Below, in pieces: positions 2,425 through 14,981 of a stretch of 16,050 nt of DNA. Origin of the DNA: a virus (Duplodnaviria; Heunggongvirae; Uroviricota; Caudoviricetes); the IMG/VR virus record IMGVR_UViG_2558860161_000009, one strand, 5' to 3'. Below the pieces are notes generated by a model that was not told where the DNA came from, did not search any database, and saw only the letters and a list, made by a program, of their open reading frames with translations. The position numbers and the translations under genes are program-made. Each line of letters starts with the position of its first letter. The stretch's first letter is position 1.

Positions 2425-3108
2425 ATGAAAAATATTAATGCCCTTAACGGGCAGGGATTCGCTCACCCTGTTGCCAGTAAAAGCGATATTAGCGTGCAGC
2501 TTAAACAGCTTCCTGCCGTCGAATTTCACGGGCAACGCGTGGTGACGTTCGCAATGATTGATACCGCGCACCAGCGACCTAAAGACACGGCTAAAAAGAC
2601 TTTTCAGCGTAATCGCACTCGCTTCATTGATGGTGAGGACTTTTTTATTGTCGGCGCGTCAGAGGTCGAATGGGGAGGGGCTGGATATTTAGACAGGGGC
2701 ATTAAACGCCCTGGCAAAAAAATGAACAGTCCGATACGTGGCCGCGTAACACTGATTACGGAATCAGGCTATCTGCTGCTGACCAAACCGTTTAACGATG
2801 ATTTGGCCTGGCAGGTACAGCGCCAGCTCGTGAAAACTTATTTCCGTTGCCCGGAGTTTGTCACTTTCCATCATGTGGATCTGCCGTCGCTCGAAGAACT
2901 GATCGCCATGCCGGTTACTGATGCGCAAAACGCCGTGACTCGTGCGGACAAGCATTCTAAGCAGTTTCATGGCTCACAGGGCAGTAATGGAATGAATCTC
3001 CGCAAGAAGGAACTCAAAGTTCTGCGTCCGGCGGTACGGCTGGTAGATGCGATGGGGCAGATTGATTTCGATAAATATGAGTGGGAGGCGGCACATGATC
3101 GCGCATAA
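2425..3108 (+). CDS. ORF6N-domain protein (phage antirepressor-like family)
   Basis: 227-aa ORF 20 nt downstream of alpA. N-terminal region HGQRVVTF...TFQRNRTRFIDGEDFF...WGGAGYL...LITESGYLLL fits the ORF6N domain pattern as I recall it. Confidence 0.65.
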   Translation: MKNINALNGQGFAHPVASKSDISVQLKQLPAVEFHGQRVVTFAMIDTAHQRPKDTAKKTFQRNRTRFIDGEDFFIVGASEVEWGGAGYLDRGIKRPGKKMNSPIRGRVTLITESGYLLLTKPFNDDLAWQVQRQLVKTYFRCPEFVTFHHVDLPSLEELIAMPVTDAQNAVTRADKHSKQFHGSQGSNGMNLRKKELKVLRPAVRLVDAMGQIDFDKYEWEAAHDRA

Positions 3109-3114
3109 AACAAA

Positions 3115-3134
3115 GGCGACCGGGGGCGGTCGCC
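3115..3134. other. Perfect 8-bp-stem hairpin (GGCGACCG-GGGG-CGGTCGCC) between convergent genes; possible terminator for minus-strand transcripts
   Basis: Inverted repeat read directly from the sequence; on the minus strand it is followed by a T-rich run (reverse complement of CATAAAACAAA). Confidence 0.3.
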
Positions 3135-3435
3135 AATGGGAAAACACTAAACATAAGCCCGAACATCATAGTGATTTGCTGGCTGGTGGGCAATGTGATC
3201 AGTCAGATTTGGTTCGTTCCAAGGTTTGCAACGAGAGCTTTTTCCTGTGCTCTTTAAGGAATTTCTCAAGAGCAAAAGCACATGGCGCGAATCTTTCTGA
3301 TTCATGTTTATGCGCTATATTTTTGCGTCGTCTCTTACGAGTTGGTGATGGTGTTTTGGTTGATTCTGTGTCGCTCATGGTGCTGTCCTGTAAAGCAATG
3401 CGCCGGACTTCTTCAAACTATGCCGCTGATAGTGG

Positions 3436-3615
3436 CTACTCCTGCTCTTTGGCCTTGCGCCGCTGGCGGCGTTTGATCTCACCTTCAAGTGCCGAAACGA
3501 TAAATTGCCCAGTGCTTTCGCCTTCTTCCTTTAAATTTTCTACAGCGTCAGCTATTGCATGGGGTACTCGTGCCTCAAGTTTTTTGGATTTTCCATTAAC
3601 TGCTTTCGTTGCCAT
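3436..3615 (-). CDS. Small (59 aa) putative ribbon-helix-helix-like DNA-binding regulator, divergent from the replication operon
   Basis: Internal ATG at 3615..3613 is preceded on the minus strand by AAGGAAAT; stop TAG at 3438..3436. The product MATKAVNGKSKKLEARVPHAIADAVENLKEEGESTGQFIVSALEGEI... has a beta-strand/helix/helix pattern and a basic tail. Fold assignment is inference; the longer 120-aa version in the ORF track is rejected. Confidence 0.5.
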   Translation of the reverse strand: MATKAVNGKSKKLEARVPHAIADAVENLKEEGESTGQFIVSALEGEIKRRQRRKAKEQE

Positions 3616-3635
3616 ATCTGATTTCCTTGTTATTA

Positions 3636-3720
3636 GGTAGCTGACAGTATACACACAAGAAAATGGAAAAACACTATTGACGTGGCTGACACCTGTCACT
3701 AGTATAGTGGCTGACACCTT
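3636..3720. promoter_or_regulatory. Divergent promoter/operator region: sigma70-like promoter for rightward transcription overlapped by direct repeats of GTGGCTGACACCT
   Basis: TTGACG at 3677-3682, 17-bp spacer, TAGTAT at 3700-3705. Exact 13-mer GTGGCTGACACCT at 3682-3694 and 3707-3719, with a third partial copy (GCTGACA core) at 3640-3646 next to the start of the minus-strand regulator. Confidence 0.45.
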
Positions 3721-3814
3721 TATTGAGGTAATCGATGAAAAGACAAAGCCCGCAGGTGCTACCAACACCAACGGGCTTCTAACCACCAACGATAGCAAGA
3801 TTATCGAGGCAGCT

Positions 3815-4018
3815 ATGAGAAATCATACCATACACCCGCAAGGGCGGGACTCGTACAACCTGAATAAATACATCTGGCGTTTTATCGCCCTGAGCACGGC
3901 ACAACCGCGCGTGATTACCATCGTGGCCACCAGCGAACAGGAAGCACGCCAGCAATCCCCGGCTGGCTGCGTGATGGTATTCGCCGCCCGTATTCGTCAG
4001 GGGGTGTGCCATGCCTGA
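3815..4018 (+). CDS. Hypothetical small protein (67 aa), start uncertain
   Basis: ATG at 3815 preceded by GAGG (3806-3809); its stop overlaps the ATG of the next ORF (ATGCCTGA at 4011-4018), suggesting translational coupling. No recognisable motif. Confidence 0.3.
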   Translation: MRNHTIHPQGRDSYNLNKYIWRFIALSTAQPRVITIVATSEQEARQQSPAGCVMVFAARIRQGVCHA

Positions 4019-4331
4019 CATGACCAATTACCAGTACCTGATTAATCCGCATTTTAACTGTGAGCATGATATTGCTAAAAAGGTTTATTCCGCTGCGGAT
4101 GGGGCTACTGACAATATATCAATGGCTGTTGCGTCAATTGGTAGCCTGATGTGGCATGCGTCAGAAAATGAGGAATATGACGAAAAGGCTATGCGCATTG
4201 ACATGGGTAATATTGGCTTGTTACTGGCAATGCTTGGGCAGTTTGATATTTCGTTACGGTGCACCATTGAAAATGCCACAGATGCATTAAATGCCATAAA
4301 GAAAGCGAATACTGATTCAAATCGGGGATAA
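4011..4331 (+). CDS. Hypothetical protein (106 aa)
   Basis: ORF tightly packed in the same orientation as the flanking genes; no recognisable motif. Confidence 0.5.
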   Translation: MPDMTNYQYLINPHFNCEHDIAKKVYSAADGATDNISMAVASIGSLMWHASENEEYDEKAMRIDMGNIGLLLAMLGQFDISLRCTIENATDALNAIKKANTDSNRG

Positions 4332-4337
4332 ATAATC

Positions 4338-4637
4338 ATGAGAACATATTTATCTGGCTTAACTGCCAGCGGTTATGCACACCCCAAAATTATCCCCGGC
4401 GCTATTTATCTGGATAAGAACGGTAACAGAGTAACGGTAAAAGAACTGATGTTTGACCGTGTTTATTTTATTCGTGATGGCTATTCATTTCATAGTTCGC
4501 TGAACGTGGAGATCTTTATTTGCAGATTCCGGCGGGAAATCCCGCTTTCCAGAAATAACCATGTGTCATGTATGGATGTTGATAAAAAACTACAGGAACT
4601 GAAAAACATGATTGCCGCGTGGAGAGAGCAGAAATGA
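4338..4637 (+). CDS. Hypothetical protein (99 aa)
   Basis: ORF whose stop overlaps the start of the replication gene (ATGA at 4634-4637); no recognisable motif. Confidence 0.5.
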   Translation: MRTYLSGLTASGYAHPKIIPGAIYLDKNGNRVTVKELMFDRVYFIRDGYSFHSSLNVEIFICRFRREIPLSRNNHVSCMDVDKKLQELKNMIAAWREQK

Positions 4638-6757
4638 AAAAAGCGCCAAATTTAAAACACCAGCCGCGTGACAAAATGACGGAAGTCATCATTTTTGCGG
4701 GTAGTAATGCGTGGGCACATGCGAAGCAGTGGCAGGAACAGGACGGGCGACTGGCTGGCGATAACGTGCCTCCTGTCTGGCTTGGAGAGCAACAACTTGC
4801 CGAACTGGACAACCTGCAAATCGTACCGGACGGACGCTATCGCGTGCGTCTCTATCAGGCGGGGTTATTGCGTCCGGGGCTTGTTAATACCATCGGGCAG
4901 AAACTGGCAGCGGCAGGTGTCAGGGATGCTGATTATTACCCTGAAGGAATGCACAGCCAGAAACGGGAGAACTGGCGCGAATATCTGGAACGTGAACGGG
5001 CAGAGCAGGCGGAAAAGAAAAAGGTAGTTGAACTGCCTGTAAAGAAAAAAGAGCCATGCTATCAGGATGATGAATTAAAGCCCCGCGTTGAAAGTCGCGC
5101 CGATGGTGTTTTCTGGGTAACGCCCAAAGTGGATAAGCAGTCAGGTGAAATTATCCGGCCTGAGACGTGGTTATGTTCTCCACTTGAACTACTGGGAACG
5201 GGGGTAATCGGTAAAGAGCATTACCGCGTGATGCGCTGGAAAAAATTCGCAAACCATGAAGTCATAACAATGGCGATCCCGTGTGGTGGCATTGGCGACC
5301 GTGACGGCTGGCGGTTGCTTAAAGATCACGGCCTGAACGTGACAACAAACGGCAAATACAGGGCTATCCTGGCTGACTGGATGCAGTTAAGCGGAAGCCA
5401 TGAGGAATGGCAGCTAAGCACAACAACGGGCTGGCATTTTGGCGCGTACATCATGCCGGATGGTTCAATCATTGGTGATTCAGAAAAACCGATCCTGTTT
5501 ACCGGAAAAAGTGCCGCTGTTAATGGCTATTCGGTTGTGGGTACGGCGGAGGGCTGGCGCGACAGCGTGGCGCGGCTGGCTGGTGGCAATCCGTCCATGA
5601 TGCTGGGTGTTGCCACGTCACTGGCAGCACCTTTGATTGGCCTTGTTGGTGCTGACGGCTTCGGGGTACATCTTTTCGAACAGTCATCGGCAGGGAAAAC
5701 CACCACGCAGAACATCGCTTCAAGTTTATGGGGGGAGCCGGACGCGCAACGGCTGACCTGGTACGGAACGGCGTTAGGTATCGCCAACGAGGCCGAAGCA
5801 CACAACGACGGGCTGTTACCCCTGGATGAAATAGGCCAGGCCGGAAACGCGCGGGAAGTGTCCACGTCAGCCTATACGCTGTTTAACGGTTCGGGGAAAT
5901 TACAGGGGGCGAAGGACGGCGGCAACAGGGAGATCAAACACTGGCGCACGGTGGCAATCAGCACCGGAGAAATGGATGTTGAGACATTCCTCAAAAGTGA
6001 GGGGGTAAAAGTCAAAGCAGGCCAGCTTGTCCGTCTGCTTAACGTACCGATGGAGAAAGCCACGCAATTTCACGAATACAGCACCGGAAAGGCGCACGCA
6101 GACGCGTTAAAGGATGCCTGGACTGCAAATCACGGGGCGGCGGGTCGTGAGTGGGTTAAATGGCTGGCAGACCACCAGCAGGAGGCAAAGGACACGGTAA
6201 GGGAATGCCGCGAACGGTGGCACAACCTGATACCGGAGAGCTACGGCGAGCAGGTCCACCGCGTGGGGGAGCGTTTCGCCATACTGGAGGCCGCACTAGT
6301 GCTTTCCGGTCATATTACTGGCTGGGATGTTCAGGCGTGCCGTGATGCCATTCAGCATAACTTTAATGCCTGGGTGAAGGAGTTCGGCACGGGTAACAGG
6401 GAATTTAAACAGATGGTTGAACAGGCTGAGGCGTTTTTGTCGTCGTTCGGGTTCAGTCGATACCTTCCTTACCCAAACAGTGATGAGCGTGATTTACCAA
6501 TTAAAGATCTTGCCGGATACAGAAAGGGGAGTATCAGAAATGAAGATGATGAGTTCCGCTTTTACACGTTTCCTCATGTGTTTGAGGGTGAGATAGCACA
6601 GGGATTTAATCCGTCTCACTTTGCCCGCGCGTTGAGTGCTGCCGGAATGCTGGAAGCGGGTAACGATCGCCGTTACAAGAAAAAGGCGCTCGGCAAAATT
6701 GGGGGGAAGCAGCATGTTTTTTACGTGCTGATGTTCCAGCCTGAAGCAGAAGATTAA
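4634..6757 (+). CDS. Satellite replication protein, primase/helicase-like (DUF927-type P-loop NTPase)
   Basis: About 707 aa from the ATG at 4634, which is preceded by GGAGAG and overlaps the upstream stop. Walker-A-like SSAGKTT encoded near 5683-5703; large size and position immediately upstream of an iteron cluster. Family assignment from memory of P4 alpha / PICI Pri-Rep-like proteins. Confidence 0.75.
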   Translation: MKKAPNLKHQPRDKMTEVIIFAGSNAWAHAKQWQEQDGRLAGDNVPPVWLGEQQLAELDNLQIVPDGRYRVRLYQAGLLRPGLVNTIGQKLAAAGVRDADYYPEGMHSQKRENWREYLERERAEQAEKKKVVELPVKKKEPCYQDDELKPRVESRADGVFWVTPKVDKQSGEIIRPETWLCSPLELLGTGVIGKEHYRVMRWKKFANHEVITMAIPCGGIGDRDGWRLLKDHGLNVTTNGKYRAILADWMQLSGSHEEWQLSTTTGWHFGAYIMPDGSIIGDSEKPILFTGKSAAVNGYSVVGTAEGWRDSVARLAGGNPSMMLGVATSLAAPLIGLVGADGFGVHLFEQSSAGKTTTQNIASSLWGEPDAQRLTWYGTALGIANEAEAHNDGLLPLDEIGQAGNAREVSTSAYTLFNGSGKLQGAKDGGNREIKHWRTVAISTGEMDVETFLKSEGVKVKAGQLVRLLNVPMEKATQFHEYSTGKAHADALKDAWTANHGAAGREWVKWLADHQQEAKDTVRECRERWHNLIPESYGEQVHRVGERFAILEAALVLSGHITGWDVQACRDAIQHNFNAWVKEFGTGNREFKQMVEQAEAFLSSFGFSRYLPYPNSDERDLPIKDLAGYRKGSIRNEDDEFRFYTFPHVFEGEIAQGFNPSHFARALSAAGMLEAGNDRRYKKKALGKIGGKQHVFYVLMFQPEAED

Positions 6758-6779: not shown

Positions 6780-6905
6780 TTGCGGGTTATGCGGGTTATC
6801 CTGTGTGTAAGTGCATTAACTGTATGAATAAAAAGGAAATCAATAACCCGCACGTAACCCGCAAAACGGCAGTTATAACCCGCAAAAGTGCGATTATAAC
6901 CCGCA
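6780..6905. repeat. Iteron cluster, probable replication origin: 2 tandem GCGGGTTAT copies followed by 4 inverted (A/G)TAACCCGC copies
   Basis: Forward copies at 6782-6790 and 6791-6799; inverted copies at 6843-6851, 6854-6862, 6875-6883 and 6897-6905 (spacing 11, 21, 22 bp); AT-rich segment 6810-6842 in between; directly downstream of the replication gene. Confidence 0.6.
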
Positions 6906-6968
6906 GAATTTCACCGTAAGGGTGTAAACAAGCGTAACTATCAACGTTAAAACCGGAGAACAGACAGC

Positions 6969-7394
6969 ATGACAGCACAGATAGCTGCTTACGGGCGGTT
7001 GGTGGCTGACCCGCAGTTAAAGACCACCAGCAAAGGGACACAAATGGCGATGGCGAGTATGGCGATTCCTCTTCCGTGCAGCCAGGCAGATGACGGAACA
7101 GCGACGATGTGGTTATCAATTCTGGCGTTTGGCAGACAGGCCGATGCACTGGCAAAACACCACAAAGGCGAGCTGGTGAGCGTGGCGGGTAACATGCAGG
7201 TAAGCCAGTGGACAGGCCAGAACGGGGAAACGCGGCAGGGCTGGCAGGTTATCGCAGACAGCGTAATCAGTGCGCGAACGGCGCGACCTGGTGGCAAAAA
7301 AGGCCAGCAGGGGCAGGCCACTGACGCACTGAACAGGGCAAAACAACAGACAGGCCAGCACGATGACCCGTACGGGGATGAAATACCGTTTTAG
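6969..7394 (+). CDS. ssb: Single-stranded DNA-binding protein (SSB-like)
   Basis: 141-aa product with an OB-fold-like N-terminal part, a Gly/Gln-rich linker (PGGKKGQQGQ) and an acidic C-terminal tail ending DDPYGDEIPF, resembling the SSB C-terminal D-I-P-F tip. Confidence 0.7.
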   Translation: MTAQIAAYGRLVADPQLKTTSKGTQMAMASMAIPLPCSQADDGTATMWLSILAFGRQADALAKHHKGELVSVAGNMQVSQWTGQNGETRQGWQVIADSVISARTARPGGKKGQQGQATDALNRAKQQTGQHDDPYGDEIPF

Positions 7395-9690: not shown

Positions 9691-10905
9691 ATGTGGTGGC
9701 CTTTTAGTCGTAAAAAAAGCGAGCAGCGTAACCTGTCCATTGATGATTTTCTGGCGCTGTCCGGCGTACCGAATACCGGATCCGGAGAATATGTTTCTGC
9801 CGGGACGGCTGAATCATTGCCTGCAGTGATGAACGCGGTTTCTGTCATCGCTGAGGCGGTGGCCACGATGCCGTGTTATCTGTATCTGGTACGTAATGAC
9901 AAGGGCAGGGAGGCGCGGGAATGGCTGGACAGTCACCCGGTAGATATTCTGCTGAATGAGCAGCCTAATTCGTGCCAGACACCTTACCAGTTTAAACGCA
10001 CAATGATGCGTCACTGCCTGCTGAACGGTAACGCCTATGCGGTTATTGAGTGGGGGCAAGACGGGCAGCCAAAATCACTTCATCCTTATGCGCCGGGGTG
10101 TGTTGTACCGGAACGCACAGGCGCACACAAATACCGCTATACCATCACCGAACCCTATACAGGAACGGTGCGCACGTATTTACAGGAAGAAGTTCTGCAT
10201 CTCCGCTATGCCTCGGATGATGGCTTTCTGGGGCGTTCCCCTGTCACGATTTGCCGTGAGGCGCTTGGGCTTGGCCTTGCTCAACAGCGCCACGGAGCCA
10301 GCATTATGAAAGATGGCATGATGGCGGCAGGGATTATCACGTCAGGCGAATGGCTGGACGGCGTGAAAGGTAAACAGGCATTAGATGCTCTGGAACGCTA
10401 CAAGGGGGCGAAAAATGCCGGAAAAACGCCAATCCTTGAAGGGGGCATGGATTACAAGCAACTGGGAATGAGTAACCAGGATGCGGAATGGCTGGCCTCC
10501 CGTCGCTTCTCCATTGAAGACATCGCCCGCATGTTCAACGTATCGCCTATTTTTCTGCAGGAATACAGCAACAGCACCTACAGCAATTTCAGCGAGGCAA
10601 GCCGCGCGTTTCTGACCATGACAATGCGCCCATGGCTGGCGAACTTCGAACAGCAAATCAAGGCCGCTTTGCTGGTGGCTTCTCCCGTACCTGGTACCCG
10701 TTATCTGGTTGAGTTTGATTCAGCCGATTTATTACGCGCCACACCCACCGAACGTTATGCCACGTATGAGAAAGGGATTAAGAACGGGATCATGAATCCG
10801 AACGAAGCCCGTGAGCGTGAGGGTATGCCGCCGCGTGAAGGTGGTGATGAGTTCAGCCAGGCATGGAAACAGACTGTGGAAATTAAAGGGAGAAAAGATG
10901 AGTGA
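9691..10905 (+). CDS. Portal protein, HK97 family
   Basis: Start taken at ATG 9691 (MWWPFSRKK...), 1 nt after the protease stop; the ORF track's 9601 start would overlap the protease gene. Size (404 aa) and position fit a portal. Confidence 0.75.
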   Translation: MWWPFSRKKSEQRNLSIDDFLALSGVPNTGSGEYVSAGTAESLPAVMNAVSVIAEAVATMPCYLYLVRNDKGREAREWLDSHPVDILLNEQPNSCQTPYQFKRTMMRHCLLNGNAYAVIEWGQDGQPKSLHPYAPGCVVPERTGAHKYRYTITEPYTGTVRTYLQEEVLHLRYASDDGFLGRSPVTICREALGLGLAQQRHGASIMKDGMMAAGIITSGEWLDGVKGKQALDALERYKGAKNAGKTPILEGGMDYKQLGMSNQDAEWLASRRFSIEDIARMFNVSPIFLQEYSNSTYSNFSEASRAFLTMTMRPWLANFEQQIKAALLVASPVPGTRYLVEFDSADLLRATPTERYATYEKGIKNGIMNPNEAREREGMPPREGGDEFSQAWKQTVEIKGRKDE

Positions 10906-14702: not shown

Positions 14703-14857
14703 TTGCGGGTTATTTGGGAGAGGTTGCGGGTTATTTTGAATGACTTGCGGGTTACGATTTGGCTAACATTTGAACATGTCATTTTTCAACGCATTGATAT
14801 TAAATAATAAAAAATACTTAGCACGCGAAGATAACCCGCTAACCCGCATAACCCGCA
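14703..14857. repeat. Second iteron cluster of the same family as 6780-6905 (ori-like)
   Basis: TTGCGGGTTA(T/C) at 14703-14713, 14724-14734 and 14745-14755 (exactly 21 bp apart); AT-rich spacer 14756-14830; inverted (T)AACCCGC at 14833-14839, 14841-14847 and 14851-14857; then TATATATATA. Confidence 0.6.
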
Positions 14858-14981
14858 CTGTTTTGTATATATATACGAAAAATTGCATTCAGGAGGGGTA
14901 GCAAAATCCCTACCGTCTCTTATCTCTTGGAGTGCCCGCCTCTTCGAATTTTAACCCCCGTGAAATTACAAAATTTCCCTG

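Follow-up and report, generated by a model that had tools for sequence, protein, structure and literature searches.

A 59-residue protein of the YlcI/YnfO family, encoded divergently from the replication operon of an Escherichia coli phage satellite, probably binds three operators in the DNA between the two transcription units, repressing both the rightward promoter and its own in an immunity-like switch. The window, i.e. the whole 16,050-nucleotide stretch analysed, is by its gene content an E. coli capsid-forming PICI-like phage satellite. It is 99.9% identical to an RefSeq-annotated island in E. coli CFS3292 (L001), the genes of which start with integrase, DUF6387, an AlpA-type regulator and an ORF6N protein, continue with the leftward YlcI/YnfO gene and then run rightward through Icd-like, hypothetical protein, DUF4222, DUF927 primase and SSB genes to capsid, protease, portal, HNH and terminase genes (RefSeq, Pfam, NCBIfam). 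This is the gene set of a cf-PICI, with integrase, AlpA and primase alongside the island's own capsid and terminase genes, and without tail or lysis genes. The repeats analysed here sit between the YlcI/YnfO gene (3615–3436, minus strand) and an operon reaching from the Icd-like gene, which heads it, to the primase gene, in which the open reading frames overlap or abut. The genes, promoter elements and candidate operators of the region are as follows.

3115–3134, minus strand: terminator-like hairpin with T-run, 8 pairs of which 7 are G-C, tail TTTGTTTTAT; ends the leftward two-gene operon
3199–3378, minus strand: basic hypothetical protein, 59 aa (ORF list), co-transcribed downstream of the regulator
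3436–3615, minus strand: regulator, 59 aa, YlcI/YnfO family (NCBIfam and RefSeq), ATG at 3615–3613
3635–3649, no strand: candidate operator O1, the weaker site, AGGTAGCTGACAGTA, core 3637–3647, covering the edge of the -10 and the predicted start of the regulator promoter
3646–3651, minus strand: -10 hexamer TATACT of the leftward (regulator) promoter, predicted start near 3639
3677–3682, plus strand: -35 hexamer TTGACG of the rightward promoter (promoter scan)
3680–3694, no strand: candidate operator O2, ACGTGGCTGACACCT, core 3682–3692, at about -30 to -20 of the rightward promoter
3700–3705, plus strand: -10 hexamer TAGTAT of the rightward promoter (promoter scan), predicted start near 3712
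3705–3719, no strand: candidate operator O3, TAGTGGCTGACACCT, core 3707–3717, at about -5 to +6 of the rightward promoter
3815–4018, plus strand: Icd-like gene, 67 aa (NCBIfam NF033153, 70 bits against a cut-off of 25; RefSeq agrees)
4011–6757, plus strand: remainder of the operon, encoding a 106-aa hypothetical protein, DUF4222 and a 712-aa DUF927 primase/replicase (Pfam, RefSeq)

Read on the plus strand, the hairpin at 3115–3134 has no T-run after its stem. Most related loci do not conserve the basic 59-aa protein of the leftward operon; at a coverage of 50% or more, homologues were found only in L002 and L004. A terminator-like hairpin on the plus strand at 3560–3577, within the regulator gene, corresponds to the codons for EARVPH. 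In L001 an IS1A (10031–10728) lies between the 106-aa ORF and the DUF4222 gene; the window, at about 4331–4338, is without it.

The preliminary description had noted two exact 13-mers 25 bp apart and a partial third copy beside the start of the divergent regulator gene, and both observations hold. The 13-mer GTGGCTGACACCT occurs at 3682–3694 and 3707–3719, 25 bp start to start, and the partial copy, GTAGCTGACAG at 3637–3647, matches at 9 of 11 core positions and lies 22 bp from the regulator ATG. When the 199-bp intergenic region was shuffled with dinucleotides preserved the longest direct repeat was 11 nt, none of 5000 shuffles reaching 13 nt, and a 13-nt repeat was reached in one of 60 shuffles of the whole window. 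Since the 13-mer is not enriched across the window (5 matches against 3.46 expected, allowing up to 3 mismatches), it is a feature local to the intergenic region. What had been described as direct repeats are indeed repeated, but the repeat unit is an 11-bp core, GTG-N5-CAC, within a 15-bp palindrome, AGGTG-N5-CACCT, with a variable 5-bp centre; the sites are therefore palindromes as well as direct repeats, and on sequence each 13-mer is the right-hand 13 bp of a 15-bp palindromic candidate operator. The remaining 11-mer matches (7002, 9972, 13887 and position 1) lie in coding sequence and were taken as chance, that at 7002 being the codons for the conserved LVADP of SSB. A 23-nt extended form of the repeat (CACTAnTnnnG 5' of each 13-mer) is absent as a conserved feature in relatives and probably just mirrors the promoter hexamers. 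The O1 of the window, GTAGCTGACAG, reads GTGGCTGACAG in the 99.9% identical island L001 and in most relatives of the same class; the G-to-A change, at 3639, affects an otherwise near-invariant arm position, is seen also in L014 (Xenorhabdus mauleonii), and may make autorepression weaker.

A scan of one genome per species gave 66 loci from many Enterobacterales genera. With the regulator ATG as anchor, O1, O2 and O3 lie in almost all of them at fixed offsets (24, 69 and 91–95 respectively, the last being 103–105 in some classes); the positions are kept across 61 distinct related loci, and this spacing is seen in Escherichia, Xenorhabdus, Pectobacterium, Yersinia, Serratia, Proteus and others. 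The promoter scan of the window returned TTGACG-17 bp-TAGTAT, the sigma70-like promoter which the 13-mers had been said to overlap at its -35 element and start region, but as the scan gave 4 matches against 3.8 expected this match on its own is at chance level. The hexamers are nevertheless conserved in the relatives: TTGA[C/A/G]N stands at the same offset in 61/61 loci, and a -10 of the form TAnnnT follows the -35 by 17–18 bp in 59/61. On the leftward side TATACT is present in 47/61 loci, most of the others carrying TATAAT, TATTAT or TATGAT at the equivalent position; no -35 is recognisable for this promoter, and a T-rich stretch lies upstream. The operators are locked to these elements. The leftward -10 shares two bases with the edge of O1; O2 covers the final base of the rightward -35 and fills the spacer, sitting at -30 to -20 across loci; and O3 sits at -8 to +6 or, in some classes, at +5 to +15. 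Such placement over both predicted promoters fits repression of both, and hence autoregulation, and the layout originally proposed, with sites over the promoter that points toward the small ORFs and primase and a copy at the regulator promoter, is fixed in the 61 loci.

The sequences of the sites change together with that of the regulator. Of three E. coli relatives, L004 has the same regulator and sites as the window, and in L002 and L003, in which the N-terminal half of the regulator is of another type, both 13-mers are changed alike to GTGGGCCACACCT and the third copy is changed too. Across loci the palindrome arms are constant and the central five bases shift jointly at all three sites of a locus. 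Copies of O3 that are free of promoter constraint display the full palindrome AGGTG-N5-CACCT, and several classes carry O3 in the opposite orientation to O2, which is what one expects of a symmetric dimer. About 18–24 site classes can be distinguished, each tied to one sequence of the predicted beta-strand of the regulator; examples are given below.

strand KSKKLEARV: site GTGGCTGACAC
strand KSKRFDVRV: site GTGTC(C/G)GACAC
strand KSQ(A/S)LK(A/S)RV: site GTGGGCCACAC
strand KSQKMSARV: site TGGGTGCCAG
strand KSQKLQARA: site GTGGAGTCCAC
strand KSQQLNARF: site GTGCGATTCAC
strand KSQMTTVRI: site GTGTATTTCAC
strand KSLQVSVRL: site GTGGTGTTCAC

Shared ancestry inflates the statistics on co-variation, as the classes are not fully independent of one another: O2 and O3 are identical at 10.25 of 11 positions within a locus and 7.25 between classes, the corresponding values for the central 5 bp being 4.58 and 1.53, and the observed pairing of O2 with O3 was matched by none of 100000 permutations. 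Subject to the same inflation, operator distance is 0.047 among loci that share an identical beta-strand, even with up to 37% divergence in the remainder of the protein, and 0.40 among loci whose strands differ. When the remainder of the protein is controlled for, operator and strand have a partial correlation of 0.32, the reverse being 0.14. Regulator residues 12, 13 and 14 show the highest mutual information with the operator centre after permutation correction. The pattern nonetheless recurs in unrelated genomic backgrounds. It is also seen in a locus that was not used in deriving it, L073 (E. coli PNUSAE019785, NZ_CP104645.1 310171–322379), where strand KSQKLQARAP accompanies the sites CTGGAATCCAG, GTGGATTCCAC and CTGGAATCCAG and fits the K12/Q14 class; this island lies within a prophage terminase large-subunit gene, a helper-embedded arrangement of a kind described previously (PMC10111431). 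Compared with L003, the 5' half of the regulator gene, the operators and the hairpin and upper leader of the window are 53–77% identical and the flanks (the regulator 3' end and the Icd-like gene) are 87–100% identical, a mosaic which indicates exchange of a specificity cassette. The module is detectable by blastn in 488 of 5426 complete E. coli genomes (about 9%). Comparison of the loci thus establishes the site positions, the promoter hexamers and the protein-site co-variation, and it is strong evidence for a putative ribbon-helix-helix (RHH) repressor with its operators, autoregulation included.

The regulator itself matches the YlcI/YnfO model NCBIfam NF041551 over residues 9–50 (61.9 bits, cut-off 30, E 4e-17), and the RefSeq name of a near-identical protein is likewise YlcI/YnfO family. 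A beta-strand, KSKKLEARV, is predicted at about residues 9–17, and the AF2 monomer model (mean pLDDT 88) is extended over residues 1–18 with helices at 19–28 and 35–58, giving a predicted strand-helix-helix topology with the G-x-S/T/N turn. In 30 homologues this turn, G32-E33-S34, is invariant or nearly so, as is R16-x-P18. The 59-aa protein has no match in Pfam, and some homologues have weak Pfam matches within the RHH clan, to RHH_1, PSK_trans_fac and CB_ParB_C (E 0.009–0.03). Foldseek against the PDB and a viral library returned nothing significant (all E > 0.01); the best TM-scores were to ParD antitoxins (0.67/0.76, rmsd 1.7) but with E above 1, and matches in the viral library with CopG or Arc/Mnt names had E 1.3–1.8. 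A sequence search of the PDB with the regulator likewise found no match. Alignment by hhalign to Arc (probability 19%) sets KSKKLEARVP in register with KMPQFNLRWP, equating K12, E14 and R16 with Arc Q9, N11 and R13, which are the base-contacting residues in the Arc-operator structure; alignment to CopG (probability 9%) places residues 11–45 on CopG 3–38. The small RHH-like divergent gene of the preliminary description is there as a divergent YlcI/YnfO gene, and the RHH fold, as modelled, is likely, without reaching statistical significance in these comparisons. The C-terminal tail EIKRRQR (residues 46–52; 3436–3476) is the same in every homologue regardless of operator class, and resembles arginine-rich RNA-binding motifs. 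A tblastn search of 50,697 phage records with the regulator found no match, so a helper-encoded homologue is unlikely.

An RHH protein could bind these sites without simple repression, as an activator of the rightward promoter or in a centromere- or iteron-type architectural role of the kind played by omega and ParG-type proteins. Some family members do have weak Pfam matches to the RHH C-terminal domain of centromere-binding ParB, and omega-type proteins likewise bind arrays of short repeats, direct or inverted. We nevertheless regard such a role as improbable, as the island has no ParA-type partner gene, there are just three sites, each in fixed register with a promoter element across 61 loci, and the replication iterons are a different sequence elsewhere (TAACCCGCAA at 6780–6906), unrelated in sequence to the candidate operators.

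If up to one mismatch is allowed, the window contains 13 matches to the iteron-like 10-mer TAACCCGCAA, where 1.28 would be expected. The cluster at 6780–6906, between the primase and SSB genes, is probably the replication origin and has six copies, two of them inverted, followed by four direct ones repeating every 21 bp. Another six are found about 7.8 kb away, near the island end (14703–14858): three on the minus strand, also repeating every 21 bp, and three on the plus strand. Lying so far from the replicase gene, this second cluster might serve copy control or be connected with packaging.

The sites could alternatively be bound by another island protein, AlpA, the ORF6N/Bro-N protein or the Icd-like protein, with the small divergent gene a bystander. 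AlpA is the sole regulator experimentally shown to control these islands (PMC6092414), and the window, like many relatives, has the alpA and ORF6N/Bro-N genes a short way upstream. The distribution of these genes among the loci makes this very unlikely. L052, L043 and L005 encode an AlpA 88–92% identical to that of the window yet have other operators, while L004 and L013 have the window's operator without such an AlpA; L070 has a window-type ORF6N (78% identical) and a different operator; and L004 has another first downstream gene (ash-like) with the same operator as the window. Neither AlpA, integrase, ORF6N, Icd-like protein nor primase follows the operator class. The 59-aa protein alone is found in every locus and varies in step with the sites, above all in the predicted DNA-reading strand. 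Activators, moreover, do not act from sites in the spacer and over the start.

The gene after alpA always encodes an 'antirepressor-type' protein, the family of which varies, being ORF6N here (2425–3108) and Bro-N in L003 and L073; AntA/AntB occupies that position in Enterobacter cf-PICIs (PMC13612085). This protein is a candidate derepressor of the small regulator, and does not co-vary with operator class. Upstream of alpA, by about 100 bp, three direct copies of ATAGAAAAA(A/T)TC lie 27–28 bp apart at 1950–2019, within the final 75 bp of the DUF6387 gene, and are candidate regulatory sites for the alpA promoter. In other PICIs the alpA promoter is helper-induced and autoactivated.

Downstream of the rightward promoter the transcript would begin with a structured leader, the elements of which are as follows.

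3746–3778, plus strand: leader hairpin in the 5' untranslated region, covarying and conserved
3778–3786, plus strand: single-stranded box TCTAACCAC, directly 3' of the hairpin, near-invariant in 55 distinct leader segments
3790–3809, plus strand: small second hairpin CGATA..TATCG, directly adjoining the GAGG that serves the Icd-like gene as Shine-Dalgarno

In the alignment 90.7% of cells of the leader hairpin are paired, against 33–44% with a slid partner; compensatory changes occur in 8 of 10 pairs, and none of 500 shuffles reached the observed score. The related loci have a hairpin equivalent to the second one at or around the Shine-Dalgarno, and in some Xenorhabdus loci the TCTAACCAC box repeats about 45 nt downstream, within the first Icd-like codons. 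A 15-codon ORF (3735–3782) behind a good Shine-Dalgarno was rejected as a leader peptide: L002 and L003 conserve neither its frame nor its length, whereas the RNA pairing is conserved. In L002 the RefSeq annotation has a 157-aa 'Icd-like' CDS (3733–4206) that begins inside the regulator gene and crosses the operators and leader. As the leader structure and the Shine-Dalgarno/ATG are conserved at the equivalent of window position 3815, comparison indicates that the short Icd-like form (about 67 aa) is the correct one there.

The rightward operon could on these grounds be controlled mainly by RNA, the hairpin and TCTAACCAC box acting in attenuation, antitermination or an immunity like that of P1 c4 and P4 CI. 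The strong covariation in the hairpin is in keeping with this, the Icd-like gene comes next as it does in the P1 immI operon (c4-icd-ant), and some Gram-negative PICIs are reported to carry RNA elements that confer immunity (PMC10111431). Rfam searches gave no credible family, C4 and isrK included, either for the window at gathering thresholds or for 3100–4700 at E up to 10, the top match being SymR on the minus strand with 23.7 bits against a gathering score of 61; the idea of a C4/CI-type leader is thus unsupported, and was rejected. In addition no complementary target pair was found for the leader and no U-run follows the hairpin. Control mainly by RNA is in our view highly improbable, and an RNA layer would supplement the co-variation of operator and protein, which needs its own explanation. 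Finally, the notion that the repeat is functionless, arising by chance or as a by-product of local duplication of promoter sequence, could appeal to the chance-level promoter scan, the lack of window-wide enrichment and the frequency with which short two-copy repeats are fortuitous, but it is scarcely credible given the local shuffles and effectively refuted by the comparative data, in which three sites at fixed positions in many genera undergo concerted, class-specific changes.

Repression by the YlcI/YnfO protein is therefore the reading we prefer, and from the comparisons above we infer binding, repression, autoregulation, the fold and the link to induction. O1, O2 and O3 would all be bound by the divergently encoded protein, probably as an RHH dimer, the two-stranded beta-ribbon of which would read the variable central 5 bp through its variable residues 12–14, with invariant parts of the protein, R16 included, reading the constant GTG/CAC arms. 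Occupation of O2 in the spacer and O3 at the -10/start would block RNA polymerase at the rightward promoter, from which the structured leader would be transcribed together with the Icd-like gene and the replication operon (DUF4222 and primase); occupation of O1, at the -10 edge and start of the leftward promoter, would limit synthesis of the regulator. Such occupancy would constitute an immunity-like switch, with satellite replication off until a signal relieves repression, and on the comparative evidence the regulator probably keeps the satellite replication genes off. Between satellites the regulator strand and the operators would be swapped jointly, as one specificity cassette.

This predicted switch has parallels in several known systems. 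In the immI region of Salmonella phage P22, Arc and Mnt are likewise small RHH repressors, placing a beta-ribbon in the major groove (predicted here), with operators over divergent promoters, autoregulation (proposed here) and control of genes that decide the element's developmental fate. The window regulator has no significant sequence similarity to Arc. Arc binds a 21-bp operator as a tetramer, in contrast to one 15-bp palindrome per site at three sites in the window; the target of Arc and Mnt is an antirepressor gene and not a satellite replication operon, and Arc is without the invariant Arg-rich C-terminal tail. The master repressors Stl/Rpr of Gram-positive PICIs (SaPIs) are similarly encoded divergently from an operon with replication genes, and the logic is alike in that the island is silent until a helper is active (PMC6092414), but they are much larger HTH proteins inactivated by helper phage proteins, whereas the window protein has 59 aa and is RHH-like. 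CopG (pMV158) and omega (pSM19035), repressors of plasmid copy number, resemble it as small RHH proteins that repress a replication-gene promoter (proposed here) from short sites, pseudo-symmetric or repeated, that overlap the -35 and -10; they differ in that the similarity is weak (the 9% CopG alignment), the window is a phage satellite and its sites are spaced by 45 and 22–35 bp. The P1 immI (c4 RNA, icd, ant) and P4 CI systems share a repressor-controlled promoter (proposed here), structured leader, Icd-type gene and development genes, but the P1 promoter is under C1 and that of the window is proposed to be under an RHH-type protein, with a leader that has no C4 or isrK match. The family namesakes, YlcI and YnfO of the cryptic K-12 prophages DLP12 and Qin, match the same NCBIfam N-terminal model as the window regulator, and YnfO has a strand-helix-helix-like sequence pattern; unlike the window gene, K-12 ynfO is flanked by nohA and ydfO within the remains of a lambdoid prophage, its product is without the EIKRRQR tail, and no GGTG-N5-CACC site is found upstream of it.

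In the current model of Gram-negative PICIs induction is by the activator AlpA, and no repressor is reported (PMC6092414). We sought EcCICFT073 in the CFT073 genome at 1.39–1.48 Mb and found only the helper prophage and chromosomal genes there. Our literature search found no paper on the function of YlcI/YnfO or DUF3950 or on these operators; the cf-PICI papers do not discuss the module, and one 2026 survey lists YlcI/YnfO solely as a prophage-associated protein. A control layer based on a repressor, as proposed here, is thus not yet described for such Gram-negative elements. More speculatively, YlcI/YnfO could be the missing master or immunity repressor of many Gram-negative PICIs and cf-PICIs, acting through about 20 interchangeable cassettes; this extension is possible, and we hold it to be rather doubtful. 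Were it so, the variety of cassettes would allow co-resident satellites to avoid cross-regulation, induction by AlpA would pass via relief of this repressor, and EIKRRQR would be the docking point for a derepressor such as the Bro-N/ORF6N protein of the AlpA operon or, alternatively, would have an RNA-binding function aimed at the leader hairpin.

The analysis yields a candidate repressor, base-level coordinates for its operators and promoters, a predicted rule by which residues 12–14 specify the central pentamer, and about 20 natural specificity variants. If confirmed, these would provide orthogonal small repressor-operator pairs of possible use in synthetic biology, and a layer of repression would be added to the model of how these satellites are regulated. 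The value of the finding lies in this context, as a candidate repression layer and a set of natural specificity variants for Gram-negative satellites.
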